IMG/VR virus record: IMGVR_UViG_3300030107_001678
Coordinates: 1 to 62,449 of that record
Direction: 5' to 3' (one strand)
DNA length: 62,449 bases
From: a virus
Lineage: Duplodnaviria > Caudoviricetes
Shown here: positions 639-55,709 of the stretch, in pieces
Numbering within the stretch: position 1 is the stretch's first letter
Layout of the letters: each line of letters starts with the position of its first letter
Position numbers and translations under genes: made by a program
Notes under the pieces: model-generated
What the model was told of the DNA's origin: nothing
Databases searched by the model: none
What the model saw: only the letters and a program-made list of their open reading frames with translations

Positions 639-3098
639 CTATCTTGCTGTTGCGTATTTAAATGGGTTATGTGCCATTGCTAAGTATATATAAGTTGCTC
701 CACTTGCATTCCAGTTTACTGCATCTCCACCTCTGGCTAACTTAAATCCATTTGAAAGAAAGTCGTTATAATCTGTACCATCTGTATATGCATCTTCTGC
801 CGCTGTACTATTTGGTACTAGCATATGGTATGCAGGATTATATGTATCTCTTGCATTATCTTCTATTCTCCAGTTATTTGAAGTTAATTTTTTCACCATA
901 ATCCATGCAGGTTTAAATCCTGTATAGACAAATGTACCATCAGAACCATCACCATTGCCAACGTATGATCCAGATTTAATATATCCTTCACAATTTGCAA
1001 AAACATAAGCAATCAAATCATTACCATTTTCATTTAAACCATCTGTATAATTTGTACTAAATACTGTTGAAGTAGGAGCAGACATTGAGCCATTTCCAGA
1101 TTTATCAGTTGATGCTCCTGTACTATTTAAATTCATTCCATAATTCCAATTAGTTTGCCCATCTGAAAATACCCACCAGTTTCCAGTTTTTTCTAAAGAT
1201 TTTGTAATAAATAGTGAAGGTGCTGTAGATAAACCATGTCCTACAGTTTCTACTCCAGATGAAGATAAACCTCCAGTATATTTAACTATAGAAAAACAAC
1301 CTGAAGGATCAACTTGAACAGTAGAATTTATATCTCCTTGAGTATTTGTAGATGTTGTTCCACCATTTGCTCTCCATGACCATGAAGCATAAGTATTACC
1401 AGATTGGTTATAATAAGTACCCATAGTATAACCAGTAGAACCAAATGCTGTTAATCCAGAAGATGTAGCTTCTGCATCAGTTTCATTTGAAATTAATATT
1501 TTAGTAGTTCCTCTTGTGCTATCCCACAAACCATTACTTTGACCACCATCTCGTCTTTTTACCCATACCAAGTCTGGTTGGAATCCAGTTGTAAAACTTC
1601 CTCCATTATTTCCAGAGTATGCTAAAGCAGTAAATGTTTTCTGTGGATAATTGTCATCAGTTTGTGCAGGATCAACTTCATCTGCTACTGGTTGATTACC
1701 AGAACATATTGCTAAAAATCCTGAAGGTACAGAATACTTAAAGTTACCATAACCTGTTCCATCACTATTTCCACCTGCTGTAACATTTCCAGCAAAAGTA
1801 CCATCTTGTCCAAAATTAAGAATTGTACTACATGGACCACTTCCTCCTGTATAACCCATATAACAAAAGAACTCTTCATCAAGACTAGATATATCTATAG
1901 TTCCTTGTCCAGCACCATTTTTATAAAACTGTAAAGTATCAGCAGTTCTATCAACAGCTATACTTATAATATCACCTTCAGCCCAAGTTGCACCATAAGA
2001 CGATCTAGTGCCTTTTAATATACTATTTCCATTAAGATTATAATAAACAAGTCCTAAATCATTTTGTTCTTGATTAATAGTAAGGTCAGTATTTGCAGGC
2101 ATAACTCCTATATACACTCCATGATCTGTAGCTATATCGTCAACATCAACTTCCCAATACCATTTACCAGTTACTGGAACTTGCCAATTAGTCATAATTC
2201 CATTATCATCTGAAGTTAATGTAGCTTTTAAATTACCTTCTGCAAGAGCTAAACCACTAGGTGGTTTTAATAAAGGATTGTATGTAGGAAAATTACCACC
2301 ATTAGAACTAGAGTTGAAGGTAGGACTATCTAGCATTTGATCGTGTGCTGCTGTTGATTCATAAGGAGTAAAATCATTATTATTACCAGAAGAATCATTA
2401 CCTAAATCAGAACTTGATTCAAATTTAAGATAATGTCCTGTGGTACCAAATGTTAATCCACTTGGATCTTTAGGAATCCACACACCATTTTTAGTTTCAC
2501 CAAAATCTCCAACAGCTTGAGCAGTTCCATCTATTAATACAATTTCAGCTAAATAACTATATAAAGTATAATTATTACCTGAATCATCACCATATCGTAT
2601 CGTATTAGCACCACACAAAACATTAGTTTGAGAAGCATCTGCTGGATAAGTTTCTGTATCAAATGCTGTTACTCTTTCACCATTTACATAAAGTTGTGCT
2701 CTATTACCTTGTGTTCCATTAGTAAAATCAAGAATACCTACTATATGATACCAAGCAGAAGCATCACGAAATACTTGTGTTGTTTCTAATTCAAATTTCA
2801 TAGCACCACCAACTTCACCTTGAAATTCTAATGTATCATCAGCTAAAAAAGTCATACGAACATAATTATTACCATCTGCATAAGCATGTAATATATATTG
2901 GTAAGCACCTATTTTATTTCTTTTAACCCAAAATGAAATACTAGAAGTTGTAGTAGAACCAGCAGATGATCTGCTTCTATCTAAATCTTGCACACCAGCA
3001 AATCTCATACTATTAGCTATTTGATGGCTATAGAAATCAGTACTTGCACTTGCTGCTGCTGCTGCAGCTCCCATTAAATTATTTTGAAATACACCCAT
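639..3098 (-). CDS. Tail fibre/receptor-binding protein copy A (LamG/ConA-like + SPRY + C-terminal repeats)
   Basis: SISFWVKR..WYHIV..LYVNGER (LamG-like); GKWYWEV..GDIISIAVD..FYKNG (SPRY); GFQPDLVWVKRR and GFKPAWIMVK repeats. Confidence 0.8.
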   Translation of the reverse strand: MGVFQNNLMGAAAAAASASTDFYSHQIANSMRFAGVQDLDRSRSSAGSTTTSSISFWVKRNKIGAYQYILHAYADGNNYVRMTFLADDTLEFQGEVGGAMKFELETTQVFRDASAWYHIVGILDFTNGTQGNRAQLYVNGERVTAFDTETYPADASQTNVLCGANTIRYGDDSGNNYTLYSYLAEIVLIDGTAQAVGDFGETKNGVWIPKDPSGLTFGTTGHYLKFESSSDLGNDSSGNNNDFTPYESTAAHDQMLDSPTFNSSSNGGNFPTYNPLLKPPSGLALAEGNLKATLTSDDNGIMTNWQVPVTGKWYWEVDVDDIATDHGVYIGVMPANTDLTINQEQNDLGLVYYNLNGNSILKGTRSSYGATWAEGDIISIAVDRTADTLQFYKNGAGQGTIDISSLDEEFFCYMGYTGGSGPCSTILNFGQDGTFAGNVTAGGNSDGTGYGNFKYSVPSGFLAICSGNQPVADEVDPAQTDDNYPQKTFTALAYSGNNGGSFTTGFQPDLVWVKRRDGGQSNGLWDSTRGTTKILISNETDAEATSSGLTAFGSTGYTMGTYYNQSGNTYASWSWRANGGTTSTNTQGDINSTVQVDPSGCFSIVKYTGGLSSSGVETVGHGLSTAPSLFITKSLEKTGNWWVFSDGQTNWNYGMNLNSTGASTDKSGNGSMSAPTSTVFSTNYTDGLNENGNDLIAYVFANCEGYIKSGSYVGNGDGSDGTFVYTGFKPAWIMVKKLTSNNWRIEDNARDTYNPAYHMLVPNSTAAEDAYTDGTDYNDFLSNGFKLARGGDAVNWNASGATYIYLAMAHNPFKYATAR

Positions 3099-7132: not shown

Positions 7133-7387
7133 TTACTCCTTATTTTTAAAATATTTATTACCTTCTAGATTTCGTAAATGTGTATTAGGTGAGAAAGAAG
7201 TTTTTGCTGCAGATGGGTTTAAAAGCTTATATAATTTTGCTACAAAATTTTGTCCACTATTATCTATTTTACCCCCTCCAGATCTTTTCTTTACTTTATA
7301 CATATTTTCCTCCTTTTTAAATTTTTTATAAACTTCTGGTTCATTAATAGCTAAATAAGTTTTTTGTTTTTTAGATTTAAAAGGCAC
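7133..7387 (-). CDS. Small basic protein (MPFKSKKQ type) with GG tag
   Basis: Lys-rich; KKRSGGGKID. Confidence 0.55.
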   Translation of the reverse strand: MPFKSKKQKTYLAINEPEVYKKFKKEENMYKVKKRSGGGKIDNSGQNFVAKLYKLLNPSAAKTSFSPNTHLRNLEGNKYFKNKE

Positions 7388-8127
7388 TATTTATATCCTT
7401 TACCATAGCCACGTAGTGCAGCTCCTACTCCTCTAGGTGTTCCTATTTGTCCACCATATTTTTTATTAACAACTTTATCTTTAGATATGTCTGCCATTTC
7501 AGATTTAGTCATACCTTGATAAACAGATTTTCTATCTTTAACTTTTTTAGGTATTTTTATTTTTTGTCCAGGTTTTATTTTATTAAGATCTTTTATTTCA
7601 GGATTTGCTTCTTTTACAGCTTTTAAAGTTGTACCATGATCCCTAGCTATTTCTGAAAGAGTATCTCCTTTTTTAACTGTATATTTACTATCTTTATCTT
7701 TACCTAATAATAAAGTAGCTAAAATAGTACCAGTACCACCATACACACCTACTTTTGTACCTACTCTACGAATATCTCTTTTAAAAACTTTATTTGCTAT
7801 ATCTGCCCATTTTTTATCACTCATGGATTTTCGCATACGACCATATACAGGTGTTCCTTTTTTACTTAATCTTCCTTTTCGTGGTTTTACACCTCCTTGA
7901 ACAGAACTAACTCTTCTACCATAACCAGGTAAAGTTTTAATTTGTCCTTTTTCAACCATATTACTTATAAGTTTTTCTGCTATAACCATACGATCAGAAG
8001 ATTTTTTTGTTTTATTAGCAGGAAGTTTTCGCAAATCTCGTATAATATTCTTAATCCACTCTTTAGCTCCTCCTGATTCTTTAATTGGGTTTATTATTTC
8101 TTTAGCAATATCTGTTTTCTTGCCCAT
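7387..8127 (-). CDS. LysM-domain basic protein
   Basis: YTVKKGDTLSEIARDHGTT..IKPGQKIKIP is a canonical LysM; preceded by a hydrophobic stretch; KKYGGQIG near the C-terminus. Confidence 0.85.
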   Translation of the reverse strand: MGKKTDIAKEIINPIKESGGAKEWIKNIIRDLRKLPANKTKKSSDRMVIAEKLISNMVEKGQIKTLPGYGRRVSSVQGGVKPRKGRLSKKGTPVYGRMRKSMSDKKWADIANKVFKRDIRRVGTKVGVYGGTGTILATLLLGKDKDSKYTVKKGDTLSEIARDHGTTLKAVKEANPEIKDLNKIKPGQKIKIPKKVKDRKSVYQGMTKSEMADISKDKVVNKKYGGQIGTPRGVGAALRGYGKGYK

Positions 8128-8331: not shown

Positions 8332-8411
8332 TTTATTTTTTTCCTTTTCTTTTTTTTGTTTTTATTTTTTGATTTAGTTATTTGTTGTCTAATACTAGCT
8401 CTATTTACCAT
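8325..8411 (-). CDS. 28-aa basic peptide with capsid-like N-terminus
   Basis: MVNRASIRQQITKSKNKTKKKKRKKIKC; fills the gap and overlaps both neighbours. Confidence 0.45.
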   Translation of the reverse strand: MVNRASIRQQITKSKNKNKKKKRKKIKC

Positions 8412-8616
8412 ATCTAGCTTTTCCCCAACCTCTAGGTTTTTTCTTAGTTTTTTTTCTTTTTCTTTTATTTTTTATTTGTCCACCTGTTTTATTTGGTTTT
8501 AAATTTTTTGTTTTAAATAATTCAAGTTGCATCATTTCTTTATCAATAATATCTATTATATTCCCATCTTCGTCTAAAACTAAAATTTGGTCTTCATTAT
8601 CATTATCGTTAGCCAT
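8401..8616 (-). CDS. Small acidic/basic protein with GG tag
   Basis: NKTGGQIK...RGWGKARYGK. Confidence 0.5.
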   Translation of the reverse strand: MANDNDNEDQILVLDEDGNIIDIIDKEMMQLELFKTKNLKPNKTGGQIKNKRKRKKTKKKPRGWGKARYGK

Positions 8617-12746: not shown

Positions 12747-13172
12747 TTATGCACTACCTGCATGTAAATTAAAGGTTGGATCTAGATCTTTTGGATGTTC
12801 CACACGCATAATAATTTGATCATCAAATAATAATATAAGACGAATACCCTTATATTTTATCTTTTGACCTGAGTGTTTTCCATAACAAACATAATCACCT
12901 TTTTTACACCATTCACCTTTAGGAAATTTATCTTTATCTTGATAAGCTAAATCTCCTAGAGCTACCACACGACCTACTGTAGTAAGATAGGACATGTCTT
13001 CCTTTGTTGAATCAGGTAATAGTATACCACCTTTTGTCTTTTCTTTAATTGAGACAGGTCTTACGAGTACATGAAAACCTGGAAGTTCAGGTAGAATATT
13101 TGGATCACTTTTTTCTTCTTCTGAAATCCACATATCATTCTTAATAGTCTTAGCTAATGATACCTGTTGCAT
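12747..13172 (-). CDS. groES: Co-chaperonin GroES (Cpn10) homolog
   Basis: VLVRP..EKTKGGILLPD..GRVVALG..GDYV mobile-loop signature. Confidence 0.85.
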   Translation of the reverse strand: MQQVSLAKTIKNDMWISEEEKSDPNILPELPGFHVLVRPVSIKEKTKGGILLPDSTKEDMSYLTTVGRVVALGDLAYQDKDKFPKGEWCKKGDYVCYGKHSGQKIKYKGIRLILLFDDQIIMRVEHPKDLDPTFNLHAGSA

Positions 13173-13369
13173 TAGTCTTCCTCTTCATCTGAATAGATAC
13201 GTTTTTTAACAATATCTGTTAGTTTATTTCTGGACCATTCAATTCCATAAATGTGTCCAACCATTTGTCTGTAATGAGGAAAATCATCTGATTGTCCATC
13301 ACAAACACCAGTTCTTAATTTATTGAGTTCGTTATTAAATTCTTTAACGACCTCATCCCATATTTCCAT
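13172..13369 (-). CDS. Conserved hypothetical protein
   Basis: YRQMVGHIYG motif; coupled to groES. Confidence 0.55.
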   Translation of the reverse strand: MEIWDEVVKEFNNELNKLRTGVCDGQSDDFPHYRQMVGHIYGIEWSRNKLTDIVKKRIYSDEEED

Positions 13370-13373
13370 TTAA

Positions 13374-13448
13374 TTAGATTTCTGCACAAGCGTAGCAGTT
13401 AATTTCTAATCCAACAGATACTTCTCTTAGTATAGGTTTAGTCCACAT
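13374..13448 (-). CDS. pqqA: Pyrroloquinoline quinone precursor peptide PqqA (24 aa)
   Basis: Not in ORF track: MWTKPILREVSVGLEINCYACAEI has WxxP and GLE-xxx-Y, the cross-linked Glu/Tyr pair of PqqA. TAATG-coupled to the upstream gene. Confidence 0.85.
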   Translation of the reverse strand: MWTKPILREVSVGLEINCYACAEI

Positions 13449-13654
13449 TATCTTTTTCCTTTAGTTGGTGAAGGATACTTCCAAGAAGAATCTTCACGTT
13501 GATTTAACACACCTTGTTTAGGTTTACTTCCAAAGTCAGCTTGTGACATTTTAGTAGAATCTCCATACAATCCACCATCTTTATTAGGTACATGCATAGG
13601 TTTACCATCAGTAATACCTTTATCAACAGGATATGCTTTATTCCCTATTGGCAT
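13448..13654 (-). CDS. Hypothetical protein
   Basis: AGGAG RBS; in operon. Confidence 0.5.
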   Translation of the reverse strand: MPIGNKAYPVDKGITDGKPMHVPNKDGGLYGDSTKMSQADFGSKPKQGVLNQREDSSWKYPSPTKGKR

Positions 13655-16196
13655 TTGTTTCTCCTTTTGTTTCTTCTTTTATTAGATCTGTCATAACATC
13701 CATAAGTTTAAAACTTCGTTGTCTATCATCTAGATCTTCCATTAATGAAACTTTCTCTAGAGCATTCATACGAATTTTTTCTAGATCAATTTCAGCTTTC
13801 TGGTCAGCAATAGCTGTTTTAGTTAGATTATCAAGAGCTTTCATAGTTTCTTTACTTGCTCTATCAAGATCAGCTTTTTCCTTTTTCAGTATTGAATCTT
13901 GACCAGCTTTACCAGATTCCACCATTAATTTAGCTTCCTCTAATTCCAATTTCTGTGCATCTAATGCAGAGTCTGCAGAATACTTAGCAGCAGTTTGTTG
14001 TAGTTTTTGTTTTTCTAATTCGACTTTAGCTTGTTCTAAAGCTACCATTTGTTGTTCAGGTGATTGTACTTGACCTGCTGCCATATTTGCATTTAATACT
14101 TGTTGAGCTGCACTTGCCATAGCTGCTTCTGCAACTTTAGGATCTTTTTGTTGTTCAGGTGGCATTTGTTCCATTGCCATTCTTGCCATACCATTCATTT
14201 GTTCTTGGTATTTCATTACAGAATGTTCTTGTATATTTGCTTCTAGTATTGGTTTTAACCTAGCCATTATAGGATTAGCACCATTCTGTGGATCTTGTAA
14301 GTATGCCATTTTTGTTTGTATATGAGCATCATGGTTTTGTCCTGCAAATGCTGCAATAGGTATACCTTTTGTTGCAGCCATTATATCAGATACAGGGTCC
14401 ATTTGTTGTGGTTCTTTTTTAGGTGGTAACACTTCTTCTAAATTAGGCATATTAGCAGAATTTAATATTGTTCTATTTAATGCTTCAAGATTAAACATAC
14501 CAGGAGGTGATTGTTGTGCCATTTGTAATGCCATTTGTGCAATCATCATTCTATGGGCATTTGATGGAATGTTAGGATCTGAGACAGGGATAACATCCAC
14601 TCTTCCATCAAAGTCTTGTTTAAGAATGTTTTTTTCAGCAAAAGGAACTTCATATGGATATTCTGAAGGTAAGTAATCATAATTGATTCTTGCAAGTATT
14701 TTAAATTCATCTCTTTGAGATTTGTGTAATCTCTTATGGATAGCAGAGAAGAACTTACTTGATGCTTCTAGTAATGCCATAGTCGTTCCAACAGGTCCAT
14801 AAGATGCAGCATCAGAAACTATTTGTTCTGTACTATCTGCAAACTTTTGTCCTGCTGCAGTTACAAAGCCAAGCATTTGAAAAAGAGTTGAGGAAGGTTC
14901 TTTATAGGGGAGAGAGATAATCGCCTTGTTCAAATCTTGTCCTGTTGCTTCAACTTCTTTAAACTCACCTGGACTTATTGGTTCATTATCACCAACAATC
15001 CTTACGCCTTTTGCTTTAAATCCTCCTGGTAAGTTTGCGAATTGACCTGCATCCACTAAACTTCTCATAGCTGCTGTAGCAGTCATAGTTAAGTTTCCTA
15101 AAAAGTGCATGAGACCAAATCCATAGAAACCAAATCCTGGAACGAATCTATAATGTACAAAGTGCGAGACTTTTTCTTGGTTCGTATCGTTCTTCTTATA
15201 GTTTCTACGAATACTTAAAATTTGTTGTGATTGCTCTTCAACTGTAACAATATAAGGAAGAGCATAGTCTTCTTCTATTTCTAAATAACAATGCTGTTCA
15301 AGTAATGTATATTGAGGATCATTATTTTCTGTAGGTGATAATCCTAATATAGTATCCATTTTAGAAGAGAATGATGTAGGTTGTGGGTTTGTTGCATCTG
15401 GTAATTCTACATCATTATATATTCCTGATCGTATATCTTTAGCAAGATCAACAGGACTTCTATATATAACATGTGTATATCTATCTGCTTTTTTTAGATT
15501 AGATGCATAGTAAGACACATAGAATTGATCAATAGGAACAAATTCAGATACTGGTCTTTTTAATGTTGCATCATAATAAACTTTTTTAAATGCTGATCCT
15601 ATTAAGGGAAGGTGAAACAACATTCTTTCAAACTCATCAAAATATTCAGGCATCTGTTCTGTTGTTTGATAGTTCATAAACTCTTGTACACGATTAGCTT
15701 GATCTTCTCTTTCAGGAGTAGACTTACCTAATATATGTGCTTTAACTGGACCTGATGGTGGAAATAATTCTTGTATAGCTTTTGATTGAAACTTAACAGC
15801 AGATTCTATTAACATAGGATGTACTGCTGTACATGCACCCTCAAATGGTTCTGATGAATCTTGTATCTTTAATCCTAATAAATCAAATCCTCTTTCAAAC
15901 ATGGACTCCCATTCTTGACGAGAATCTCTATCTGATGTAAAACAATCAATAACTTCATTTGCTATATTAGCTAATTGTTCTTCTTCTAATGTATCAACTA
16001 AATTACCATACCATTCTTGTATAGATTCTTCAGCTCCCATTTCTGGTGATGTACCTTCAAGATCAACAATAACACCACCATCTGTATCCATTTCAAATGT
16101 TGGTTGTCCTATTGGTGCTTCTTCTGGTGTAGGTAAATTCACTATGTTTGATACTTCTTCTGGTATAGTATCAAATGGATTTCTTTCTGTTGCCAT
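13638..16196 (-). CDS. Portal protein with long C-terminal coiled coil
   Basis: 852 aa; SRQEWE..GFDLLG, HPMLIES, GSAFKKVYYD, PGFGFYGFG; Q/A-rich tail. Confidence 0.85.
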   Translation of the reverse strand: MATERNPFDTIPEEVSNIVNLPTPEEAPIGQPTFEMDTDGGVIVDLEGTSPEMGAEESIQEWYGNLVDTLEEEQLANIANEVIDCFTSDRDSRQEWESMFERGFDLLGLKIQDSSEPFEGACTAVHPMLIESAVKFQSKAIQELFPPSGPVKAHILGKSTPEREDQANRVQEFMNYQTTEQMPEYFDEFERMLFHLPLIGSAFKKVYYDATLKRPVSEFVPIDQFYVSYYASNLKKADRYTHVIYRSPVDLAKDIRSGIYNDVELPDATNPQPTSFSSKMDTILGLSPTENNDPQYTLLEQHCYLEIEEDYALPYIVTVEEQSQQILSIRRNYKKNDTNQEKVSHFVHYRFVPGFGFYGFGLMHFLGNLTMTATAAMRSLVDAGQFANLPGGFKAKGVRIVGDNEPISPGEFKEVEATGQDLNKAIISLPYKEPSSTLFQMLGFVTAAGQKFADSTEQIVSDAASYGPVGTTMALLEASSKFFSAIHKRLHKSQRDEFKILARINYDYLPSEYPYEVPFAEKNILKQDFDGRVDVIPVSDPNIPSNAHRMMIAQMALQMAQQSPPGMFNLEALNRTILNSANMPNLEEVLPPKKEPQQMDPVSDIMAATKGIPIAAFAGQNHDAHIQTKMAYLQDPQNGANPIMARLKPILEANIQEHSVMKYQEQMNGMARMAMEQMPPEQQKDPKVAEAAMASAAQQVLNANMAAGQVQSPEQQMVALEQAKVELEKQKLQQTAAKYSADSALDAQKLELEEAKLMVESGKAGQDSILKKEKADLDRASKETMKALDNLTKTAIADQKAEIDLEKIRMNALEKVSLMEDLDDRQRSFKLMDVMTDLIKEETKGETNANRE

Positions 16197-17119
16197 TATA
16201 TAAACCTCGCTTCTCTCTTATATGGATCACGCATGATCATACCCCCTTTATATTTTTCGTGTAGATATTTTAACATATCACTTCCACCTTTAGTATCTAA
16301 AAACATTCCTATATTTGTATTACCTGCTTCTCTAATTGTAAAACCATCATATCCATGTCTTTTTAATATAGGATGTAAATCTTCATTTTCTACATAACTT
16401 CCTGATCCTTTACCAAACCATTTATTTTTTCTAAAAGATTCTATAAATTGTTTTGGATTTAATTGATCTACAGCATCATCAACATTATAAGAATTAAATA
16501 ATCTATTTGATCTCATTAACCATTCTTTAAAATTATTATCTTTCATAAGTTCATTAAATTGTTTATCATTTGTAGGATCAAATATCTTAGCATTCTCTTT
16601 AATTCGTAATGGATATACTCGTGAACCTTGGTCTTTTCCTTCCATTAGTGTATGTCGTGTTACATGAAAATTTGCTTCTTCAGGATTTCTTGTTACAAAT
16701 AAAACATTATCTGGAGTTTTAAATATATCTTCATCATATTTTTTAGCTGTGCCATGATATACTTTTAATTCTTTTCCTTGAGGAATAGTTGGATAGTCAT
16801 CTGTATCTAAATCTCTTAATAAGTCTTTTTCTTTTTTAGGAATAACACGATTTATAAGATTACTTGTTCCTTGTTTTATATACTTAGATCCTGGAACCCA
16901 TATACCTAATAAACCTGTTAATGCTTGTGGTATACCCCATAAGTTTCCTTGCATAGTTTGTTGTACACCTTGTTGATATTCTTTTATATCATGGGCTGGA
17001 GATATAATATCTGCTGCTAATAATCCCATGTTCTGTAAATCTTCACGAGTTATAGGTTTTGTAGGTACTACTTCATTTGGACCTATACCATACTTTAAAG
17101 AACGTAATCCATTAGCCAT
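16196..17119 (-). CDS. Tagged cassette protein 3: ADP-ribosyltransferase-like payload
   Basis: VYHGT...LFVTRNPEEANFH...GSRVYPLRI...GYDGF, resembling ART-PolyVal domains. Confidence 0.65.
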   Translation of the reverse strand: MANGLRSLKYGIGPNEVVPTKPITREDLQNMGLLAADIISPAHDIKEYQQGVQQTMQGNLWGIPQALTGLLGIWVPGSKYIKQGTSNLINRVIPKKEKDLLRDLDTDDYPTIPQGKELKVYHGTAKKYDEDIFKTPDNVLFVTRNPEEANFHVTRHTLMEGKDQGSRVYPLRIKENAKIFDPTNDKQFNELMKDNNFKEWLMRSNRLFNSYNVDDAVDQLNPKQFIESFRKNKWFGKGSGSYVENEDLHPILKRHGYDGFTIREAGNTNIGMFLDTKGGSDMLKYLHEKYKGGMIMRDPYKREARFI

Positions 17120-18003
17120 TATATAGCCCTTTGTGCGTTATAATTTTTATTAGGATCTCTCATTACTCTACCACCTATAGCTTTATCTATATTAATATCT
17201 GGATTAGGTATAAAACCTTTTTTAGAATAACTTCCTTTATCTTTAGGAAACATTTTAGCTTCATCTGTTAATCCTAATTTTCTCCAAAAATTAATAGCAT
17301 TTTTTTGTATATCTGTAATTTCTAATCCTTTTGGATTTTCTGATAAATAAGATAATGCTTTTACAATTTTTTTTCCTAAACCTGATTTTCTTGCTTCAGG
17401 AACTATTTCAATATTTACTAAACCTTTAATCGTATCTTCTTTTCCTTGTATTAAAGATACAGTACCTACTGGTTTTTCTTTATTTGGTAAAAAAATATTA
17501 TATTTATGTCTTGCATCTATTGCTTTTATACCACCAGCTCTATCAACACCCATATCTATTAAAGCAAATGCATTATCTCGATCATATATATTTTTTTGAT
17601 CAAGTCCATAAAAATGCTCTTTATTTATTATAGGTTTCTTAGTAACTGCTTTAGCAGCTAACTTAGCTAATTGACTTGCACCTATTACTGCTGCTCCTAG
17701 AGGTGCACCAGCTCCTGTACCCATCATTATAGCACCTGTACCTGTACCAATATCTCCTGCAGTACTAATACCTTTTAATAATGCATCCATGTATCTTTTA
17801 TTTATTAGATCCTGATAGATAGTAGGTTCTATACTTGATAGTCCAGTTTCTCTTGCTATATCAGAACCTGGAAGCATTTGTGCTGAAAGTAATCCTATGT
17901 TCTTCAAATCCTGTTCTGTAAGATTTGAAGTTGTTTGATCACCTATACCATATTTAAGTGAACGTAAACCATCAGCCATTATATAAACCTTTGTGTATTA
18001 TAA
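17081..18003. repeat. Imperfect direct repeat at cassette gene junctions (17081-17143 / 17941-18003)
   Basis: 53/63 nt identical by manual alignment; core GCCATTATATAAACCT also at about 16192-16207. Confidence 0.8.
17119..17979 (-). CDS. Tagged cassette protein 2: GNAT acetyltransferase payload
   Basis: IEIVPEARKSGLGKKIV (acetyl-CoA motif A) and AINFWRKLG (motif B). Confidence 0.7.
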   Translation of the reverse strand: MADGLRSLKYGIGDQTTSNLTEQDLKNIGLLSAQMLPGSDIARETGLSSIEPTIYQDLINKRYMDALLKGISTAGDIGTGTGAIMMGTGAGAPLGAAVIGASQLAKLAAKAVTKKPIINKEHFYGLDQKNIYDRDNAFALIDMGVDRAGGIKAIDARHKYNIFLPNKEKPVGTVSLIQGKEDTIKGLVNIEIVPEARKSGLGKKIVKALSYLSENPKGLEITDIQKNAINFWRKLGLTDEAKMFPKDKGSYSKKGFIPNPDINIDKAIGGRVMRDPNKNYNAQRAI

Positions 18004-19607
18004 CTTTTATAAGGATCTTGTGAAACTCTTCCTTTTATTTCTCTACGTACACCATATCCTCTTGGAGAAGTTTCTAAAGGTAGTTCTGCATCTCCAACTT
18101 CTTTTGTATAGAATGCTGCACCTAAAGGACTATACTTTAATCTTTTTCCTATTCCTAGTAAATCTTGTCCTAAATTTCTTATAGGTTTTTCTTTAGCTTT
18201 AGGTTTTACTTCTTTAACTTCTTTAGCTTTTTCAGCTCTTACTTTATCTGATTCTATTGAAGTACTAGAAGATTTAACAGTTTTAAATTGTTTTAAAACA
18301 TCTGCCATTTTTTTTGTAAAACTACCAGGTTTTCCTTCTCTAGTAATAAATTTATCTTTTACATAATCTTTAGCAATATCTTTTCCTGCACTTAATATTT
18401 CTTCTTTAACAGTATTTAAAATATCTTTACTATATATAGGTTCTATTTCTTTTTGACCATAACTATCACTATAAGTACCAGATAATCCTCTGTCAAATAC
18501 TGTATATGTATTACTTTCTAAAAGAGATTTAATTCTATTTTTTTCATTTGTTATATATTGTTCAGCTCCTAGTTCTGCTAGGTCTTCTTTCATTTTTGCA
18601 GAAAGATTAGGATCTCGTATTGATTGTGTTATAGCACCATGTGAACCATCTATAGAGCTATAATTATATTTTTGCCTAGATTGAATAAAAGTATCATTTA
18701 ATATAGCTTGTTTTACTCTTTCTTTTTCTTCAATAGAATTTATAATATTATATTCATTTTCTAAATCTTCAAATTTTTTTATATTTTCAAATGCATCATC
18801 TATTAAATATTCTTCTCTTGCATTATTTAAAACTGTATCATCTGATTCGTAATCAGGATCTTCAGATAATTGTCCATATCCAAAAGATACATCATCTATA
18901 AAATCATACTCTTCATTCTTTACTTGTTGTATAGCAAAATTAAAAGGAAGTTTTTTATTACTTGCTATAGTTCTTATTTCATTTTGTTCATTATCTAATT
19001 TTAATAATTCTAATATAGCTTTTTTTTGTGCCTTATTTTCATTATTATTTAAAATATCTAATTTTATTTCTAAACGCCTAGTTATATCATCTAATTGTTG
19101 TTTAAGTATATCTTTTTTAATAACTAGATCTCCACCAGGTGTAAGAAAATTAGTTATTTCGTTACCTTGTTTATCTACTCTATATGTATAACTTATAGGA
19201 ATTTTACTTGGATCTGTTATTTTTGAATATTCTGTAAGTCTATTTTTATGTTCTGCTAATTTTTTTATATCTTCATACAGATTTTCAACAGTACCTTGAT
19301 ATGTATTTTCTGTAAGACCACCAATTTCAAATTTTTTTTCTCTAGATAAGTTGTCTAATACCTTATTTTTTAAAGATTCTATTTTATAATATCGTTTTAT
19401 TAATTCTTTTGTTATAGGAATTTTTTTAAGTATTGAACTACCTTTTGAAATATTTCCTACAGCAGATAGACCACTATCTAATAAAGGTCCTGTAGCTATT
19501 TCTGTTGCTATACCTGTTAAACCTTTTCCAAAATCTCTACGAGATAAATCTGTACCAATACCTTTAGTTATTAAAGCAGGTAAACCTTTTTTATCGTCTG
19601 AAGGCAT
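17979..19607 (-). CDS. Tagged cassette protein 1: unknown helical payload with twin-Arg-like motif
   Basis: Probable start MPSDD at 19607 (AAGGAG RBS); SRRDFGKG; C-terminal tag shared with neighbours. Confidence 0.65.
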   Translation of the reverse strand: MPSDDKKGLPALITKGIGTDLSRRDFGKGLTGIATEIATGPLLDSGLSAVGNISKGSSILKKIPITKELIKRYYKIESLKNKVLDNLSREKKFEIGGLTENTYQGTVENLYEDIKKLAEHKNRLTEYSKITDPSKIPISYTYRVDKQGNEITNFLTPGGDLVIKKDILKQQLDDITRRLEIKLDILNNNENKAQKKAILELLKLDNEQNEIRTIASNKKLPFNFAIQQVKNEEYDFIDDVSFGYGQLSEDPDYESDDTVLNNAREEYLIDDAFENIKKFEDLENEYNIINSIEEKERVKQAILNDTFIQSRQKYNYSSIDGSHGAITQSIRDPNLSAKMKEDLAELGAEQYITNEKNRIKSLLESNTYTVFDRGLSGTYSDSYGQKEIEPIYSKDILNTVKEEILSAGKDIAKDYVKDKFITREGKPGSFTKKMADVLKQFKTVKSSSTSIESDKVRAEKAKEVKEVKPKAKEKPIRNLGQDLLGIGKRLKYSPLGAAFYTKEVGDAELPLETSPRGYGVRREIKGRVSQDPYKSYNTQRFI

Positions 19608-19693
19608 ATAATACTCCTTCAAACAATATAGCAAATACTATAATTGACATAAAAAATAACATGAATTTCCCCTATATACTATCTATTATACCA

Positions 19694-21235
19694 CTAAGTT
19701 CTCCAGTATGCAACCTTTTTCTTTCTAGGTTCATCTTCCCACTCAGGATCTTCAGGATGCGACAAGTGCCACGACTCTTTCATATAATGTATTGCCATAG
19801 TCATAGCATCAACTTGGTCATCATGTGCAGCATTAGGAAACCTTAACATTTCTTCTAATAAGTCTTCTGACCATTTTTTATTTTGTGGTATCCATACACG
19901 ACCTGATTCCATCATAGGAGATGCTGCATATACTCTGGATACCTTATCTTTATCTGGTAAATATTCTAATACAGGCACACCAGATCTACGCATATCTTGT
20001 ATTAATGATTGTCCTGATGCTTTCTTTTCTATCATACAAACATCAGGTTTATGCTCATGGTATAATAATTGAGCCATACGTCTTAATTCTGGATATTCAA
20101 ATCTTCCTTTTATATTTCCTAATAAAATTAAATTTGATTGATACGATTCATATCCTTCTTCATCCTGATCATACATGGAGAATATACCCCATGTCTGAAT
20201 AACACTATAATCTGCTGTAGTTTTTGTAGAGAATGCTGTATCATATGTTTGTATTATAAAATCACATGTAGGTGGTTCTGCATATTCCCACCAACGTATC
20301 CATTTCTTTTTTATTAATCCCCCTTCATCTGGTGTGGGATCTTGCATATACAAAGCATTCCAGTATCGTGCACCATTTGACGCTTTAATTTCTGATTCAT
20401 CTACTTTTAATATGTTATCTGGCTTCCATTCAGGAAAATAACTAGAACCTACAGGTAAATCTAATAATTCTGATGCTTCTTCATCAAGCCATGCTGGAAT
20501 ACGTACAACATCCCAAGGAGTTACAGCATAATCTCCTACATTTTCTTGTTGTTTTAATAACCATCCACAGAGATCATCATAATGATACCTTGTATTAATA
20601 ATTAATATGGAACCATTAGGCATAATACGTGTTCTTAGTCCTGCTGGATACCATTCCTTAACGTATCTTCTACCTGCTTCAGAGTATGAGTCTTCTTCTG
20701 ACATGACATCATCAAGGATCGCAATGTGTGCACCTCTTCCTGCAATCTGGGATCGTACTCCTGCAGCATAGTAGGTTCCTCCAATATTTGTTTTCCATTT
20801 TCCTGCTGCTCGTACATCTGTACGTAAGGACACTCCTTTGAAAATATCCTGAAATGTTTCTTCATTAACAATATCTCTGACAGAACGACCAAAATCGCTT
20901 GATAACTGGTCACTATGGGAAACAGTAAGTATTTCATGTTCTGGATTCCTTCCAATATACCATGCAGGAAACAATTTAGAACAGATAACAGACTTAGAAG
21001 ACCTGGGTGGTAGAAAAACCATAAGTCTTTTTATCTCTCCAGCTTCTAATTGTCTTAGTTTTTCACTAATAACCTCTATATGTCTACCCATTTTCCAATC
21101 AGAAACAAGTTTTGGAGCCATTTGGCGAACAAATGTCAAGAAATCTACCTTAGATTCCTGTTGAACTTTTGTACTTAATAGATTATTAAGAGTTAAAAGA
21201 GGTGATATGTCTATAGAGTTCTCTATAGTTTCCAA
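19694..21235 (-). CDS. terL: Terminase large subunit
   Basis: PPRSSKS Walker A, IAILDD Walker B, TYDTA and HDDQVDAM nuclease motifs. Confidence 0.92.
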   Translation of the reverse strand: METIENSIDISPLLTLNNLLSTKVQQESKVDFLTFVRQMAPKLVSDWKMGRHIEVISEKLRQLEAGEIKRLMVFLPPRSSKSVICSKLFPAWYIGRNPEHEILTVSHSDQLSSDFGRSVRDIVNEETFQDIFKGVSLRTDVRAAGKWKTNIGGTYYAAGVRSQIAGRGAHIAILDDVMSEEDSYSEAGRRYVKEWYPAGLRTRIMPNGSILIINTRYHYDDLCGWLLKQQENVGDYAVTPWDVVRIPAWLDEEASELLDLPVGSSYFPEWKPDNILKVDESEIKASNGARYWNALYMQDPTPDEGGLIKKKWIRWWEYAEPPTCDFIIQTYDTAFSTKTTADYSVIQTWGIFSMYDQDEEGYESYQSNLILLGNIKGRFEYPELRRMAQLLYHEHKPDVCMIEKKASGQSLIQDMRRSGVPVLEYLPDKDKVSRVYAASPMMESGRVWIPQNKKWSEDLLEEMLRFPNAAHDDQVDAMTMAIHYMKESWHLSHPEDPEWEDEPRKKKVAYWRT

Positions 21236-21349
21236 TATTATAATCCTTGTTGTATATTATTATATATTTAATAAGAAAAAAACAAAAAACAAAATGAAAA
21301 ACAAAATATAATATACTTGTGGTTTTTAAATCTTTATATATTATATATA

Positions 21350-21378
21350 ATTATACACTACTCCCCACTTAAAGTCAA
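21350..21378 (-). promoter_or_regulatory. Sigma70-like promoter for terL operon
   Basis: TTGACT-17 nt-TATAAT on the minus strand. Confidence 0.65.
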
Positions 21379-21885
21379 GTCTTTTTTTTATTTTTAGTTA
21401 TTAACCCTAGTTTTTAGGTAAATATGTGGGGGTATCATATATATATAATACACACGTGCGAATTTTTTGGGGTGGGGTGGTGCAATTCCTTTTATAATAA
21501 TGCGAATCATTCTCAATAGATACCTTATTAAAAAGAATCTTTTAAAATTTACTATAATATAGGTAAATCTTTTATAATTTGTTTATTACTCTATAAATTA
21601 TAATCGTAAACAAGTGTATTATGCCTATATATCTCTTAAAAACCTTATAAAACAAGGTATTTGCTACAATCTAATAATAATTATTAGTTATTATTATTAA
21701 TACTATTGATTATTATTAATAGTTATTATGATTATTCAATATAGTGTTTAATAGCATTTTAAGCGTTGCTAATAGCGTTTAGTAATTTAATGTATATTAG
21801 TACATTAAACTAGTTTATGTTAATTGTGGGTTATTATAGAGCTATTTAAAGGTATTTTAATATCTATATCTTTATAATATAGGTA

Positions 21886-21925
21886 TAAAAAAAGAACTAC
21901 TAAAATTAATTAATAGTTCTTTTTA
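21886..21925. terminator. Intrinsic terminator-like hairpin
   Basis: AAAAAGAACTA...TAGTTCTTTTT just downstream of 21947..22147. Confidence 0.55.
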
Positions 21926-21946
21926 TTTAGGGATGTTTTATTTTAA

Positions 21947-22147
21947 TTATCTATTTAATAAATAACTATGTAATTCACTTAAATTGATTTGATTAAATGG
22001 AATATTAAATTTCCTAGAGATTTCATTCATTAAAGTGATAGAATGAAAACCATTTTTAATATACTTCTCATTATTAGGAAAATGAGAACCAGTTTTAAAA
22101 GATTGATTTATATAACTATCTATATATTTTTTAATTTCATTATTCAT
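21947..22147 (-). CDS. Hypothetical protein
   Basis: AAGGA RBS. Confidence 0.45.
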   Translation of the reverse strand: MNNEIKKYIDSYINQSFKTGSHFPNNEKYIKNGFHSITLMNEISRKFNIPFNQINLSELHSYLLNR

Positions 22148-51356: not shown

Positions 51357-53375
51357 TTAAACTTTAGTAGGTGTTAATAATTCTTTAAAGTCGTCATTAT
51401 TTAAAATTGGATCTATCATACCTCCATGTTTTTTTGCATTAATTGCTTGCAATCCAGTTTCTCGTGCTATATGTTGCATTAATAATAATTGGTTATTTTC
51501 TAAGTTAGCTGTATTAGTTTTATATGCATCCATATTTGGTCCACCTAATCCTAAATCTGCCATAGTAATTGTTAAAGATTTAGTATTTCCACTTTTATCT
51601 TGATACGAAATAGTAGCTGTATTCTTATCTATTAATTGTGCAAAAGCAGCAGTATATAGAGTTGATAAAGTATTAGCTTCTCCAGTAAGTTTTCCTTTAG
51701 GTTGCCATGCTCCAGTATTTTTATTTTGTTCCATATCATCACCAACAATAGATGCAGCTTGACTTATTATATCTTTTTGACTCCATGCACTTCCAAATTT
51801 ATTTATTTTACCTTCAGCAGCTTTTAATGCAGCTTGAGCTGATATATCTTGAATATCTAATCCTGCTATTGCACCTATTTGTGCTGTTAATGCTTGAACT
51901 AAATCAAGATTACCTGCTGCTTCTGCTTGTTTTAATTGTAATTTTAAATTATCAAGTTCTTTTTGTTCAGTTATATTCCTTGCTTTAATTTCTGTTCCTT
52001 TTGTTCCTACATCTGTACCTATTTTACCTAAAAGGTTAGCAATTTTCATACCAGCAGTTGTTCCTTCTGGACCTGTAACTTCTGGTGACATACCATGGTC
52101 AGACATAGCTTTAAATAATGCTTGTTCTCTATCAAATTGATCTCTAATAGCTGCTGTATTTCGCCATTCTTCTGCTGCAGATACTTGATTAGCTATTGTA
52201 TCTAAAACATTTTTTCTACCTGTACGCATTTGATCTAATTCTGTAGATAATAATCTTGTTCCTCCTGCCATTTGATCTTGCCAAGGTAAAGCTGTATCAA
52301 TATTAAAATAAGGTTGTGGTTTACTTTTTTCATATTCTTCTAAATATTTTCCTGCTTCTGTAGTTAAGGGATCGAATATTATACCACTATTAGCTCTTTT
52401 AACTAATGAAGAAATACCACCACCAGTTTTACCAGCTCCTTGATACATAGGATATGGTTGACCACCTATAGTTTTACCAGTAAATTGTCCATAAAGTTGC
52501 CCAAGTCCTCCAAGTCCAGTAATAAGTTGTTGACCTACACTAGGACCAAAAGTTGCTGGTTTACTTGGTTCAAATACTGTTTGTCCTAAAGGAGCACCTG
52601 TAACTAACGATTGATACTTACCTATTTGTTGATAAGGATATTCTCTTTCAGTTAAATATTGTTGAAATAAATTATCAATAGCAGTTTGAGATTGTTGTTG
52701 TCGAGCTTCCCCTACTAAACCAAGTCCTGATAATTCTGCAGCAGCTTGTTTATAACCTTGTGTGCCTATATTTGCTAATTGTGTTGCTGCTTGACCTGTT
52801 CTAGTACGTTCTTCAGTTAATCTATTTACAGCATCTTGATATGCTTGTGCACTTCCTTTAGCTTGAATATCAGCTAAAAGTCTTTGTTGTGTATCTGCAG
52901 CCATACCTTCAAGAATAGCTTGTCTACTTCCACCAAATGCTTGTGCTTGTACAGCTTGTTCTGCTAATTTTGGAATAACTTCTGATTCAAATTGTTTAGT
53001 AGCTTCTCTTTTTTCTATATCAGTTACTGCTTGTTGATAAGGTGACATATAAGATTCAATTTGTTCAGCAGTTATAGGAGCAGCACCAGTTCTTGTCATA
53101 GTTTGAGCTTCATCAAATACAGGAGCAGTAGATCCTACAAGACCTGCAATACCTGTAAATGCTTGCTCTTGTTCAGGTGTAAACTCTGCAAGTGTAGCTC
53201 CAGTATAAGGTTGATAACCTTCATCCATTCGTTGATTATATAATGCTTGAGCTTTACTTAATATATCTTTATAATAAGGAGCTAGTTCTTTAGGTATTTC
53301 TGAAACATTTATAGCTTGAGCAGGAACTGGAGGTGTTAATTGTTTTTCACCAAATAAAGAAGAAAATACTGCCAT
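51357..53375 (-). CDS. DNA transfer/ejection protein
   Basis: YMSPYQQAV, AFGGSRQAI, Q/A/G-rich. Confidence 0.6.
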   Translation of the reverse strand: MAVFSSLFGEKQLTPPVPAQAINVSEIPKELAPYYKDILSKAQALYNQRMDEGYQPYTGATLAEFTPEQEQAFTGIAGLVGSTAPVFDEAQTMTRTGAAPITAEQIESYMSPYQQAVTDIEKREATKQFESEVIPKLAEQAVQAQAFGGSRQAILEGMAADTQQRLLADIQAKGSAQAYQDAVNRLTEERTRTGQAATQLANIGTQGYKQAAAELSGLGLVGEARQQQSQTAIDNLFQQYLTEREYPYQQIGKYQSLVTGAPLGQTVFEPSKPATFGPSVGQQLITGLGGLGQLYGQFTGKTIGGQPYPMYQGAGKTGGGISSLVKRANSGIIFDPLTTEAGKYLEEYEKSKPQPYFNIDTALPWQDQMAGGTRLLSTELDQMRTGRKNVLDTIANQVSAAEEWRNTAAIRDQFDREQALFKAMSDHGMSPEVTGPEGTTAGMKIANLLGKIGTDVGTKGTEIKARNITEQKELDNLKLQLKQAEAAGNLDLVQALTAQIGAIAGLDIQDISAQAALKAAEGKINKFGSAWSQKDIISQAASIVGDDMEQNKNTGAWQPKGKLTGEANTLSTLYTAAFAQLIDKNTATISYQDKSGNTKSLTITMADLGLGGPNMDAYKTNTANLENNQLLLMQHIARETGLQAINAKKHGGMIDPILNNDDFKELLTPTKV

Positions 53376-53378
53376 TTT

Positions 53379-55709
53379 TTATACCCTTTCCATCATAGGT
53401 CTTAGTGCTTCAAGACCATTTATTTCATTAGGTTGTTTTATTGTACCATAAGCTTTCTTACGTACACTTTCAACAACACCATCCATTACTTTTGCACCTG
53501 CATCTGGATTACCATTACCAAGTGCAGACATAGTATAAGAATCTACAACATATTCAGTAGGAGATACTGCTAATGTTCCTACTTGTTTACCTTTATCTTT
53601 TATAGGCATATAAACATTATCTTCCATACCATGTCCTTCACCAGGAACCATACCACTAAATTCTCCACCATGTGCTTTTTCTATAGTTCCTCCTGTTTTT
53701 AAATTACTTGAACCAAAACTAACATATTTTCTTGTATCTATATTTTTAAAATAATGTTTACCAGTACCTTGATCTGTATACATATACATATAATCTGCTG
53801 GATTTAATCCATTTGATGATAGTAAACTCCAAGGAGGATCTGGTAAAACTATCATATTTCTATTTGCAACTTCTGTTGAAATATCAGGAGTATCAGGAAG
53901 ATCTTTAACTATATCAGAAAGATCATTAAAAGTTGAATCTTTTTCAGGCATTCCTCCAGTTGCTAAACTAATTAATCCTCCTTTTTTTGTATATGTTGTA
54001 GGATTAAATGTATATCGAGGTGTTAAACGAGGTCGTGCTCGTCTACCATAAGCTATATCTAATATTTCATCTTCAGTTAAATTATATTCAACACCACTAG
54101 GATCAACTACAACATATGTTTGATTAAATCCTGACTCTTCATCTGTTAATGGTCTTGTTAATTCATAATTTCTACGTCTTAATTCTTCTTCAGCTTCTCG
54201 TAATTCTTTTTCACGTTCACGATCTCCTCTATAATCAGGAGTCATTGCATCCATAGCAGCTAATTCAAGTAGTCCTGTACCTGTACCATAATCTTCTATA
54301 ATACCTCCAGTTACTGATTGAGGATCTGCTATATAATCCATTCCTTGACCTACTGTTTGACCTATTGGACTTGCTTTTAGATCTGCCCATTGTCTTTCTA
54401 ATAAGTTAGGAGGTTGATAATTTGGATCTATAGTTGGAAGTTCTGTTATTGTAGGATCAGGTGTATAACTTACAGGATTTCCTAATTTATCATAAGTAAC
54501 TGTAGAATGAGCAGGTATTCCTGCTGTTTGTGCGATTGATTTAGGATATAAATTATGTTGTCCATAACCAGCACTATCACTAAAAGTTGTTTGTGTTTCT
54601 ATTGGTATACTTTTAGAAGTTGTAGTTGTAAGTGCAGGTTCTTGAGTTGGTGCTTGCCATAAAGATCCAGTATCTCTATAATTACGTAAACCTCTAAGAC
54701 CACCTGCAGTTACACCAGACATTGCTGCAGCTTTTAAAGCATCTTTAGGTTTTGCACCAGCAACTAATGCTCCAAAACCACTACCAAGTCCTGTTGATAT
54801 ACCCATTGCCCAAGGACTCATAGAAGCAACTTGTTGAGATAAAGTTAAACCTTTAGCTAATGAACCAGGAAGAAACCAAGTAGGAGCAAATTTAGCAGCT
54901 AAATAAGGTGCTACAATAGTTGCTGCAAGAGGAGCTAATGTTCTAAAAGCTTTAGACTTAGCTACTTTTTTAATTGATTTAGCTGCTTGTTTAAATGGTT
55001 TAAAGAAACTTTTAATACCCCAAGCTTCAGGTAATCCTGTAATAGGATTATATGTAATTGTTCCAAGAGATGCTAGTCCTGCAACTTCTTCAGGATTCAT
55101 ATGAACAAGCATATTATCCCCATATCTACCAAGATCTGCTAATCCTTGAGCTGTATTAACTATTTGTCCACCACCTGCTCTTAAAATCCCACCAAGATCT
55201 CCTTGTTCTGCAATTTTTCTTCTTTCAAATTGCTCATGTTGTGCTTTATTTCCTGAAAGATCTTCTAAATCTCTTAAATAATTATTATGTCTATATGCTT
55301 CTTCAGGAGTAAAATATCCTGCATCTATTTGTTCTTTAGTAATTCTATCTAATCCACCTGTTATATTATGATCAAGCATATCTATTTGATCACTAGATCG
55401 TAATGCTGGTATTTTAGTTTGATTTCCTTCTGCATCTACACTTACATCAACAAAATATATCTTACCATTATACATAAAAGTTTCACCAACCTCTGTATTA
55501 GCTATACCATCTTCTAAAGTATTAAAACTCATTTGACCACCATTTTCTTTTCGTACAATAGGTTCTTGCGTAACTTGTGGCAATCCCATAAGTCCTTGAT
55601 TGTTTATTCCTTGTAAATATTGCATAGCTCTTAACCTTTCTAATCCTTCTTCGCTTTGTATAGCATCTTGAAAATCTTCTAATTGTTCTAATTTATTTTG
55701 TGGTGTCAT
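53379..55709 (-). CDS. Internal virion/ejection protein with multiple GG motifs
   Basis: GDNMLVHMNPEE..NPITGLPE, Gly/Ala hydrophobic region, GEGHGMEDNV..EYVV. Confidence 0.55.
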   Translation of the reverse strand: MTPQNKLEQLEDFQDAIQSEEGLERLRAMQYLQGINNQGLMGLPQVTQEPIVRKENGGQMSFNTLEDGIANTEVGETFMYNGKIYFVDVSVDAEGNQTKIPALRSSDQIDMLDHNITGGLDRITKEQIDAGYFTPEEAYRHNNYLRDLEDLSGNKAQHEQFERRKIAEQGDLGGILRAGGGQIVNTAQGLADLGRYGDNMLVHMNPEEVAGLASLGTITYNPITGLPEAWGIKSFFKPFKQAAKSIKKVAKSKAFRTLAPLAATIVAPYLAAKFAPTWFLPGSLAKGLTLSQQVASMSPWAMGISTGLGSGFGALVAGAKPKDALKAAAMSGVTAGGLRGLRNYRDTGSLWQAPTQEPALTTTTSKSIPIETQTTFSDSAGYGQHNLYPKSIAQTAGIPAHSTVTYDKLGNPVSYTPDPTITELPTIDPNYQPPNLLERQWADLKASPIGQTVGQGMDYIADPQSVTGGIIEDYGTGTGLLELAAMDAMTPDYRGDREREKELREAEEELRRRNYELTRPLTDEESGFNQTYVVVDPSGVEYNLTEDEILDIAYGRRARPRLTPRYTFNPTTYTKKGGLISLATGGMPEKDSTFNDLSDIVKDLPDTPDISTEVANRNMIVLPDPPWSLLSSNGLNPADYMYMYTDQGTGKHYFKNIDTRKYVSFGSSNLKTGGTIEKAHGGEFSGMVPGEGHGMEDNVYMPIKDKGKQVGTLAVSPTEYVVDSYTMSALGNGNPDAGAKVMDGVVESVRKKAYGTIKQPNEINGLEALRPMMERV

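Follow-up and report, generated by a model that had tools for sequence, protein, structure and literature searches.

Gene boundaries between TerL and portal

How does a short run of accessory genes between TerL and the portal gene come to differ from one phage to the next, and could the boundaries between those genes be the means? The question is raised by a locus in a whole IMG/VR virus record of 62,449 bases (IMGVR_UViG_3300030107_001678), referred to here as the window. The virus is a lytic marine podovirus from an uncultured marine group related to pelagiphages. On its minus strand the order of genes is TerL, cassette A, cassette B (GNAT), cassette C (a fold like that of ADP-ribosyltransferases, ART) and portal. 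We propose, with a probability of roughly 0.7, that recombination between repeats at the gene boundaries diversifies this modular array, as a preliminary description of the locus had suggested. The natural variants reported below support this role of the repeats; the recombination itself we infer from them and have not observed directly.

The preliminary description had pointed to a direct repeat, 17081-17143 and 17941-18003, that spans the end of one gene, its stop/start overlap and the beginning of the next, and had noted that a core of it recurs at the portal start. These points were borne out. The two copies match at 53/63 nucleotides (nt), which is the top 63-nt direct match within 13000-21500, where 20 first-order Markov simulations of the same region reached only 37-42 for their best match of this length. 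When extended, the match covers 105 nt with 76% identity (17081-17185 vs 17941-18045), and the longest exact runs common to the junction copies are 11-16 nt. The 16-mer GCCATTATATAAACCT is found exactly at the portal start (16192-16207) and at 17975-17990, and with 2 mismatches at 17115-17130. The pattern AGGNNNATATAATGGC has 3 occurrences in the 62449-base record, at the junctions only, and none in a backwards-read control.

As read from the open reading frame (ORF) ends at the first two junctions, each copy consists, on the minus strand, of the end codons of one ORF (the C-tag), a stop/start overlap, TAATG, and the 13 codons with which the next ORF begins (the N-tag). Junction J1 (17941-18045) comprises the C-tag of A, TAATG and the N-tag of B, and forms the direct-repeat pair with junction J2 (17081-17185), which comprises the C-tag of B, TAATG and the N-tag of C. 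Junction J3 (16192-16248) is partial: it joins the C-tag of C through TAATG to the portal start, holds the exact 16-mer and shares only the C-tag and TAATGGC part with the other copies. The junctions at 17979, 17119 and 16196 are each a TAATG overlap. Cassettes B and C share the N-terminus MA[DN]GLRSLKYGIG, and a six-frame scan found the tags nowhere else in the window.

Gene content of the site among relatives

As relatives we took 80 IMG/VR loci whose TerL is 76-99% identical. Sixteen of them stop short of the TerL 3' end or of the portal start and were left out; the remaining 64 and the window make 65 loci. Copy number and content of the array vary among them, which the preliminary description had anticipated: the TerL-portal gap measures 28-3497 nt and holds 0-3 genes, the window having the largest gap at 3497 nt. 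ORFs of at least 60 amino acids (aa) are absent from the gap in 37 loci and number one in 22, two in 2 and three in 4. The gaps without such an ORF are 28-162 nt long in 35 loci, 455 nt in L067 and 1062 nt in L036; the last of these (L036:1897-2963) possibly represents a cassette in decay. Of the 65 loci, 16 have one or more C-tagged cassettes, as counted from locus listings, and 12 have untagged small genes, mostly of a MGTK/METK family of 90-146 aa that ends in KKGG[KQ]I. The portal-proximal end reads ...ATATAATGGC in filled sites and is an ordinary GGGGA leader in empty ones. A small conserved ORF of 50-62 aa with ...K[KN]HTITITN... is seen between or before cassettes in several relatives (L019:4043-4231, L039:3027-3212, L021:6857-7009 and L023:1567-1719) and is not joined by a TAATG overlap.

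Breakpoints in related genomes and metagenome contigs

If recombination acts at the boundaries, related genomes should change partner inside the repeat, and such breakpoints were found both in related loci and in contigs. One comparison is with L042, whose TerL shows 99% aa identity to that of the window and whose flanks are 98.6% and 99.6% identical in nucleotides. L042 is without cassette A, and the shared leader ...GGGGAAATTCA runs directly into ATAAAATGGCTGATGG. Its first gene, c0, matches B at 89% over the first ~335 nt and then continues into another body; the C-tag of c0 is 89.5% identical to J3 over 57 nt. Cassette C is shared, with identity back to 99.6% thirteen bases before its ATG. 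A second locus, L003, corresponds to L042 with cassette C removed. Upstream of CCAAGGGGG, L003 tracks the first gene of L042 with 1 mismatch in 55 nt; from AAGGGGG on, it is identical over 64 nt to the tag of cassette C and the portal start, and its tag differs from L042's own c0 tag at 6 positions. The switch point between L003 and L042 sits within the C-tag, which is where an exchange between two copies of the junction would place it.

The region 15800-20200 is present in marine metagenome runs from 16 studies, and Logan contigs of four runs (X1, X2, X4 and X5) were aligned to 13000-22000 at 90% likeness. A joint of 16204 to 17128 skips 923 nt, which is the J3-J2 spacing and corresponds to cassette C. 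It occurs in one contig of X2, two of X4 and one of X5 (three studies), with a shorter side of 33-34 nt, and its product carries B's tag as far as ...NYNAQR followed by FI, the stop and the portal, that is, a hybrid tag. A further X4 contig (record 19, 2474 nt, ~99% identical, with differences of 7 and 17 letters and a 30-nt insert) covers 16293-17080 and 17941-19595 with nothing between. The 860 nt skipped here equal the J2-J1 spacing, corresponding to cassette B, and the edges 17080/17941 are those of the repeat. This contig encodes A and then C directly, with the N-tag MADGLRSLKYGIG followed by PNEVV, and the same N-terminus is found in the database proteins P0006 and P0007. The empty-site form is represented by one X4 contig that runs from portal to TerL with 19 other letters between them. 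Other joints in X5 (skips of 1059, 1373 and 317 nt) were set aside as unreliable, their sides being 22-25 nt. An in-frame insertion of 30 nt behind 18202, in cassette A, is seen in X2 and X4 contigs and is absent from the window and X1.

Tags and bodies in new combinations

Tags and gene bodies are combined in different ways among these viruses. The cassette C body has its homologues in a single cluster of 19 sequences, among which at least 6 types of C-tag occur; conversely, the tag GGM[IV]MRDPYKRE[AE]RFI is found on 5 body clusters. The GNAT body has B's tag in the window and another tag type in L006. The first 121 residues of B recur at 79-87% identity on another body in L003 and L042, and this N-domain is also found on several further bodies in the protein database. 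When IMG/VR was scanned with the junction pattern, 81 stretches with 65 distinct junctions were recovered; 59 of the junctions lead into a portal-like start, 5 into an N-tagged cassette and 1 into an unrelated gene. Tag-bearing ORFs of at least 140 aa number 84, in 18 single-linkage clusters.

The tag as peptide and as translation start

The residues of the tags appear to be what is conserved. Silent differences stand beside conserved residues (GGA/GGT, GTT/GTA, AAT/AAC), and the tags are therefore kept by protein-level selection. The end of the C-tag has in addition a constrained nucleotide sequence. The Arg three codons before the stop is AGG in all 3 window tags and in 12/20 distinct tag ends among relatives, whereas AGG makes up only 49/642 Arg codons in the window's long ORFs. 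Together with a preceding CAA, CAG or GAG it gives AAAGG or GAGG eight bases before the next ATG, a spacing such as would be expected for a Shine-Dalgarno (SD) site. The last Ile of the tag is ATA in 19/20 tag ends, and the TAATG overlap is present in 14/20. From these features the tag end is predicted to double as the translation start region of the next gene. No slippery heptamer for a -1 frameshift fusing cassettes was seen by eye in the junction sequences. An internal promoter was considered at a TATAAT that arises from Tyr-Asn codons in the A tag (18024 to 17997) and rejected: promoter-like hits are fewer than in shuffles (26 vs 34.2 over 13400-19900), and the type-1 tag has no TATAAT. 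The same region has one terminator-like site, away from the junctions.

A model for exchange at the boundaries and its alternatives

We propose the following model. A boundary is made up of a C-tag of ~17 codons with an SD-like AGG, an ATA-TAA-TG overlap and an N-tag of at least 13 codons. Three such accessory genes occupy a hot spot between TerL and portal, where they are probably read from the single promoter-like element TGGTATAAT and probably coupled translationally down to the portal. Because every boundary is alike, recombination between two of them, whether short-homology or homologous, would remove, add or exchange exactly one gene and leave the downstream start intact. The exchange could take place within one genome or between co-infecting relatives, and the machinery would be supplied by the phage's replication and recombination genes, such as the Cas4-like exonuclease and endonuclease VII that the record encodes along with a DNA polymerase and a primase-helicase. 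In T7, loss of DNA between short direct repeats is a familiar event.

Several points weigh against this model. For classical homologous recombination, the exact runs of 11-16 nt shared by the junction copies are short. Breakpoints at gene boundaries would also become enriched if intact genes are selected for. The preliminary description had proposed silent-site conservation as a check, and the copies in the window show none: among 22 codon pairs of J1 and J2 that encode the same amino acid, the same codon is used in 15 vs 12.4 expected from the window's codon usage (z=1.17). When codons were redrawn for the two peptide pairs with TAA kept fixed, the simulated identity was 47.9 +/- 2.7, compared with 52/62 for J1 and J2 (P=0.083). 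The peptide tags, codon bias and the invariant TAATG account for the identity of J1 and J2 in the window, and there is therefore no sign of gene conversion or of silent-site selection. The preliminary description had held that a constant array combined with identity due wholly to protein constraint would speak against recombination; protein constraint does account for the identity in the window, and the array is not constant, with 0-3 genes among relatives. Some borders lie after the N-domain of B (aa ~121), so that not all exchange goes via the repeat. Finally, the preliminary description had proposed read mapping for cassette-precise deletions; the 923-nt and 860-nt skips come from assembled contigs rather than from reads, and the 923-nt joints may stem from related phages rather than from deletions of this genome, since their sides are 33-34 nt and the alignment was at 90% likeness.

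These considerations lead to the most serious alternative, which we regard as unlikely but worth weighing. The repeats could be a by-product of peptide tags and a favoured start context; arrays would then be replaced through TerL and portal homology or by illegitimate recombination, with selection keeping the genes intact. The lack of excess silent-site identity between the in-window copies fits this explanation, and the TerL and portal flanks, 84-99% identical among relatives, could carry whole-array exchange. Untagged genes, namely the MGTK family of 90-146 aa and a 298-aa ORF in L012, are found at the same site with a TAATG overlap onto the portal, which also fits it. Against it stands the position of single-cassette switch points inside the tag. 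L003 changes partner in AAGGGGG, at the head of its 64-nt match to the cassette C tag; the tag resulting from the 923-nt joint is a hybrid, and the edge of the repeat is precisely where the 860-nt skip ends. Tag types are moreover reshuffled against bodies. We therefore retain exchange at the boundary repeats as the better account of the variants.

Could the junctions instead be sites of a dedicated site-specific recombinase, in an integron-like array? Seemingly promoterless cassettes beside a promoter-like element, each bounded by a recurring sequence, are reminiscent of such a system. Against it, no integrase or recombinase family was found by PHROG comparison in the 57 ORFs of the record (E<=1e-5) or in the five proteins from TerL to portal (E<=0.01). 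The three junctions have no inverted repeat or hairpin in common, there being an unrelated 9-nt pair in two of them and none in the third, and they drift synonymously like ordinary coding DNA. We consider this alternative very improbable. With neither an integrase nor an attC-like hairpin, short-homology recombination is favoured, likely by the phage's own apparatus or during co-infection.

That the three-cassette array or its variants are assembly artefacts, strain chimeras joined at the repeats, is hardly credible even for a metagenome-derived record and with X1 contigs breaking at 17136-17165: misassembly at the repeat is unlikely because the junction copies share at most 16 exact bases, below the k=31 of the assembly words; the same kinds of arrays occur in many independent IMG/VR contigs; and X1, in which 95% of sampled words are present and which may be the source sample, is an independent assembly with J1 contained in a contig of 2663 nt and J2 together with J3 in one of 1293 nt, both at the same depth, so that the order A-B-C is reproduced there. 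The X1 contigs break with a 30-nt overlap inside the C-tag of B, a pattern to be expected from a branching assembly graph if that sample contains several array variants side by side.

Proteins encoded by the cassettes

Cassette B (17119-17979, minus strand, 286 aa) consists of the N-tag MADGLRSLKYGIG, an N-domain (aa 1-121), the GNAT body and the C-tag GGRVMRDPNKNYNAQRAI. It matches Pfam Acetyltransf_1 at 24.2 bits, the cut-off being 20.7 (E 4.3e-5, aa 157-236), and PHROG acetyltransferase families (E 4e-4); a tblastn search of 50,697 phage records gave no match.

Cassette C (16196-17119, minus strand, 307 aa) carries the N-tag MANGLRSLKYGIG, a body with an ART-like fold at aa ~107-285 and the C-tag GGMIMRDPYKREARFI. 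No Pfam family was matched. Its AlphaFold model has a confidence (pLDDT) of 55 overall, higher at aa 107-285, and both termini are disordered. When the model was compared with about 48,000 PDB chains using VIA-align, the top matches were mostly of the ART fold, including ParT (Z 6.6), RES toxins, MbcT, AcrIF11, diphtheria toxin and PARPs, with all Z below 8. A domain of a cyanophage A4 pre-ejectosome protein is matched as well (Z 5.7), and Foldseek returned no match at E<=0.001. Within 18 sequences of the cassette C family, H122-G123-T124 is invariant and Y169 and E264 are kept in at least 90%, residues that may form a catalytic triad of the H...Y...E type. ART-PolyVal was hit by 2/18 family members, the best at E 0.014 and below the gathering score, and by a cassette in L052 at E 1.6e-4, likewise below cut-off. 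Judging from the model, cassette C is a probable ART-fold enzyme.

Cassette A (17979-19607, minus strand) encodes 542 aa from an ATG at 19607, the open frame reaching back to a TTG at 19634. The cassette has an SD sequence of its own (GAAGGAG) and the C-tag GRVSQDPYKSYNTQRFI; its N-tag, DDKKGLPALITKGIG, is degenerate. Neither Pfam nor PHROG gave a family match, and ESM Atlas scores of at most 0.79 indicated no family; 44 clusters belong to the cassette A family, all of them full-length homologues. This family has a conserved internal G[IV]GKRLKYSPLG ~55 residues before the C-terminus (18125-18160; aa ~485-496 of the 551-aa ORF), which resembles the N-tag GLRSLKYGIG and may be what is left of an older junction. 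In cassettes at the first position, S/T-R-R-x-[FVL]-[GL]-K-G is followed by an Ala/Gly-rich stretch (19530-19607 of A; L071:1966-2060, L053:1931-2020, L052:1917-2010), and the two together resemble a twin-arginine signal. In NCBIfam scans of A, B, C and six relatives nothing scored above cut-offs, and the TAT-target model gave a weak match only for the N-terminus of L071 (E 0.028).

A possible role of the tags in virion loading

Why would unrelated enzymes carry the same ends? The tags may mark these proteins as virion-borne cargo that is injected into the host. Position within the head-gene block, the kinds of enzymes encoded and the disordered termini of the cassette C model would all fit such cargo. 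We tentatively extend this to a proposal that we hold to be possible and still doubtful: the N- and C-tags would act as a portable signal for virion loading and ejection, and the array as an integrase-free "effector integron" in which the boundary is packaging signal, ribosome-binding site and recombination site at once. A K-K-x-G-G-x-I motif lies 16-27 residues from the C-terminus in the C-tags, in an ejection-protein homologue (51357-53375) and in a transglycosylase-like protein (7387-8127), and 5/11 GG[RMQSTL][IV] sites fall within the last 35 residues (P=0.012). The looser form K-[KT]-x-G-G-x-I is seen 22-27 residues from the C-terminus in the transglycosylase-like protein, in a 71-aa protein (8401-8616) and in the ejection-protein homologue (phrog_4287), and three times inside the neighbouring 776-aa protein (53379-55709), all four being encoded on the minus strand; it may be a common processing or loading motif of internal virion proteins. 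A PHROG scan of the 57 ORFs found no gene for a prohead protease, the enzyme that in T-even phages cleaves the N-terminal capsid targeting sequence of internal proteins.

C-terminal loading signals are known from the HK97 protease tail and from encapsulin cargo peptides. The systems closest to the present locus are the internal protein (Ip) loci of T-even phages and the PeSL shuffling of T4-type hyperplastic regions. According to the consulted portions of two reports, the injected internal proteins of T-even phages are diverse, non-essential and have only a capsid targeting sequence in common (PMC3012670, PMC12373910). Likened by description and not by sequence comparison, both loci encode diverse proteins with a short conserved terminal signal in common. 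The present locus differs in having tags at both termini and TAATG-chained genes upstream of a podovirus portal, with packaging as our inference. T4 Alt, described in the consulted part of PMC5512222 as an injected ADP-ribosyltransferase, parallels cassette C, and MuF fusions are described there as injected effectors. The same part reports MuF/polyvalent effectors in which ART, GNAT and other domains are encoded beside portal or terminase and predicted to be virion-borne (PMC5512222). The likeness lies in enzymatic effectors beside portal and terminase genes; the difference is that those proteins hold many domains per polypeptide, whereas here there is one enzyme per small gene and swapping at the level of the gene. 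No MuF domain was found in the Pfam scan.

In the consulted part of PMC2839356, PeSL repeats of T4-type phages flank non-essential genes, and recombination between them leads to whole-gene insertion, deletion and replacement. Short repeated units flanking exchangeable genes are common to both systems, but a PeSL is, in that text, a non-coding promoter and stem-loop, whereas the repeats here are coding tags and a stop/start overlap with no intergenic space and no junction stem-loop or terminator. A further comparison is with integrons.

Integrons use a tyrosine-recombinase integrase (IntI) encoded beside the array and imperfect inverted repeats of the attC type at the cassette ends, and have single-gene promoterless cassettes downstream of one promoter. 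The present array is similar in its exchangeable single-gene cassettes, seemingly promoterless and behind one promoter, and is unlike an integron in having no integrase, no attC-like hairpin and boundaries inside coding sequence. What is distinct here is a coding repeat at both gene ends, chained by overlaps onto an essential gene in uncultured marine podoviruses. Our searches of open-access literature found no description of the locus; in the accessible part of a comparative genome paper on HTVC023P-type phages the words portal, hypervariable and cassette are absent, and its supplementary data might list the genes.

The boundary is thus a concrete, sequence-defined unit of gene exchange in widespread uncultured marine podoviruses, in which accessory enzymes of host-directed type are gained and lost singly at boundaries that keep the essential portal expressed, and it offers a testable natural case of coding repeats as recombination substrates. 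If the tags are loading signals, they would offer a compact means of recognising injected effectors in viromes and of directing proteins into capsids. If the "effector integron" proposal is true, abundant marine phages would swap anti-host enzymes as single units.

Flanking genes and the record as a whole

The array is anchored upstream by TerL (19694-21235, minus strand, 513 aa; Pfam Terminase_6C E 3.4e-17, phrog_38 E 4.9e-112) and downstream by the portal gene (13638-16196, minus strand, 852 aa; phrog_1216 E 4.6e-40), whose ATG overlaps the stop of cassette C. Directly 3' of the TerL stop lies TGGTATAAT (19685-19693, minus strand), an extended -10-like element that from its sequence is a putative promoter of array and portal. 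TATAAT stands directly after the TerL stop in the loci inspected, empty or filled, and the preceding 3 bases vary (TGG, TGT, TGA, TGC). It is followed by the shared SD-like leader AGGGGAAATTCA (19662-19673, minus strand), recognised by nucleotide comparison, with a homology break at reverse coordinate 2339. Cassette A begins after this leader in the window, and in L042 and L003 the leader abuts the first N-tagged cassette directly. Portals all start with MA[TIV]E[RK]NPF (window 16170-16196), whose RNPF resembles the C-tag core [RE]-[DN]-P-Y (ERNPY in several relatives); the likeness may be due to chance or may be a trace of the origin of the tag.

Cultured and deposited phages gave weak DNA matches only, to Pelagibacter phage HTVC027P and 023Pt_psg01 (2-3% of a 7.7-kb query at 66-71% identity). 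Their portals are 41-42% identical to that of the window, and their TerL-portal interval holds two large, different genes. By these comparisons the phage is a relative of the HTVC023P-type pelagiphages and not a member.

The record has a G+C content of 31.6%, is rated by CheckV as 100% complete and is classed as linear. ORFs run off both of its ends on the minus strand (2-628 and 61207-62448) and, as given, do not join in frame; possibly the record is circularly permuted or lacks a few bases. Tail-fibre-like paralogues (phrog_19943/24898) lie near the two ends, at 639-3098 and 61207-62358.

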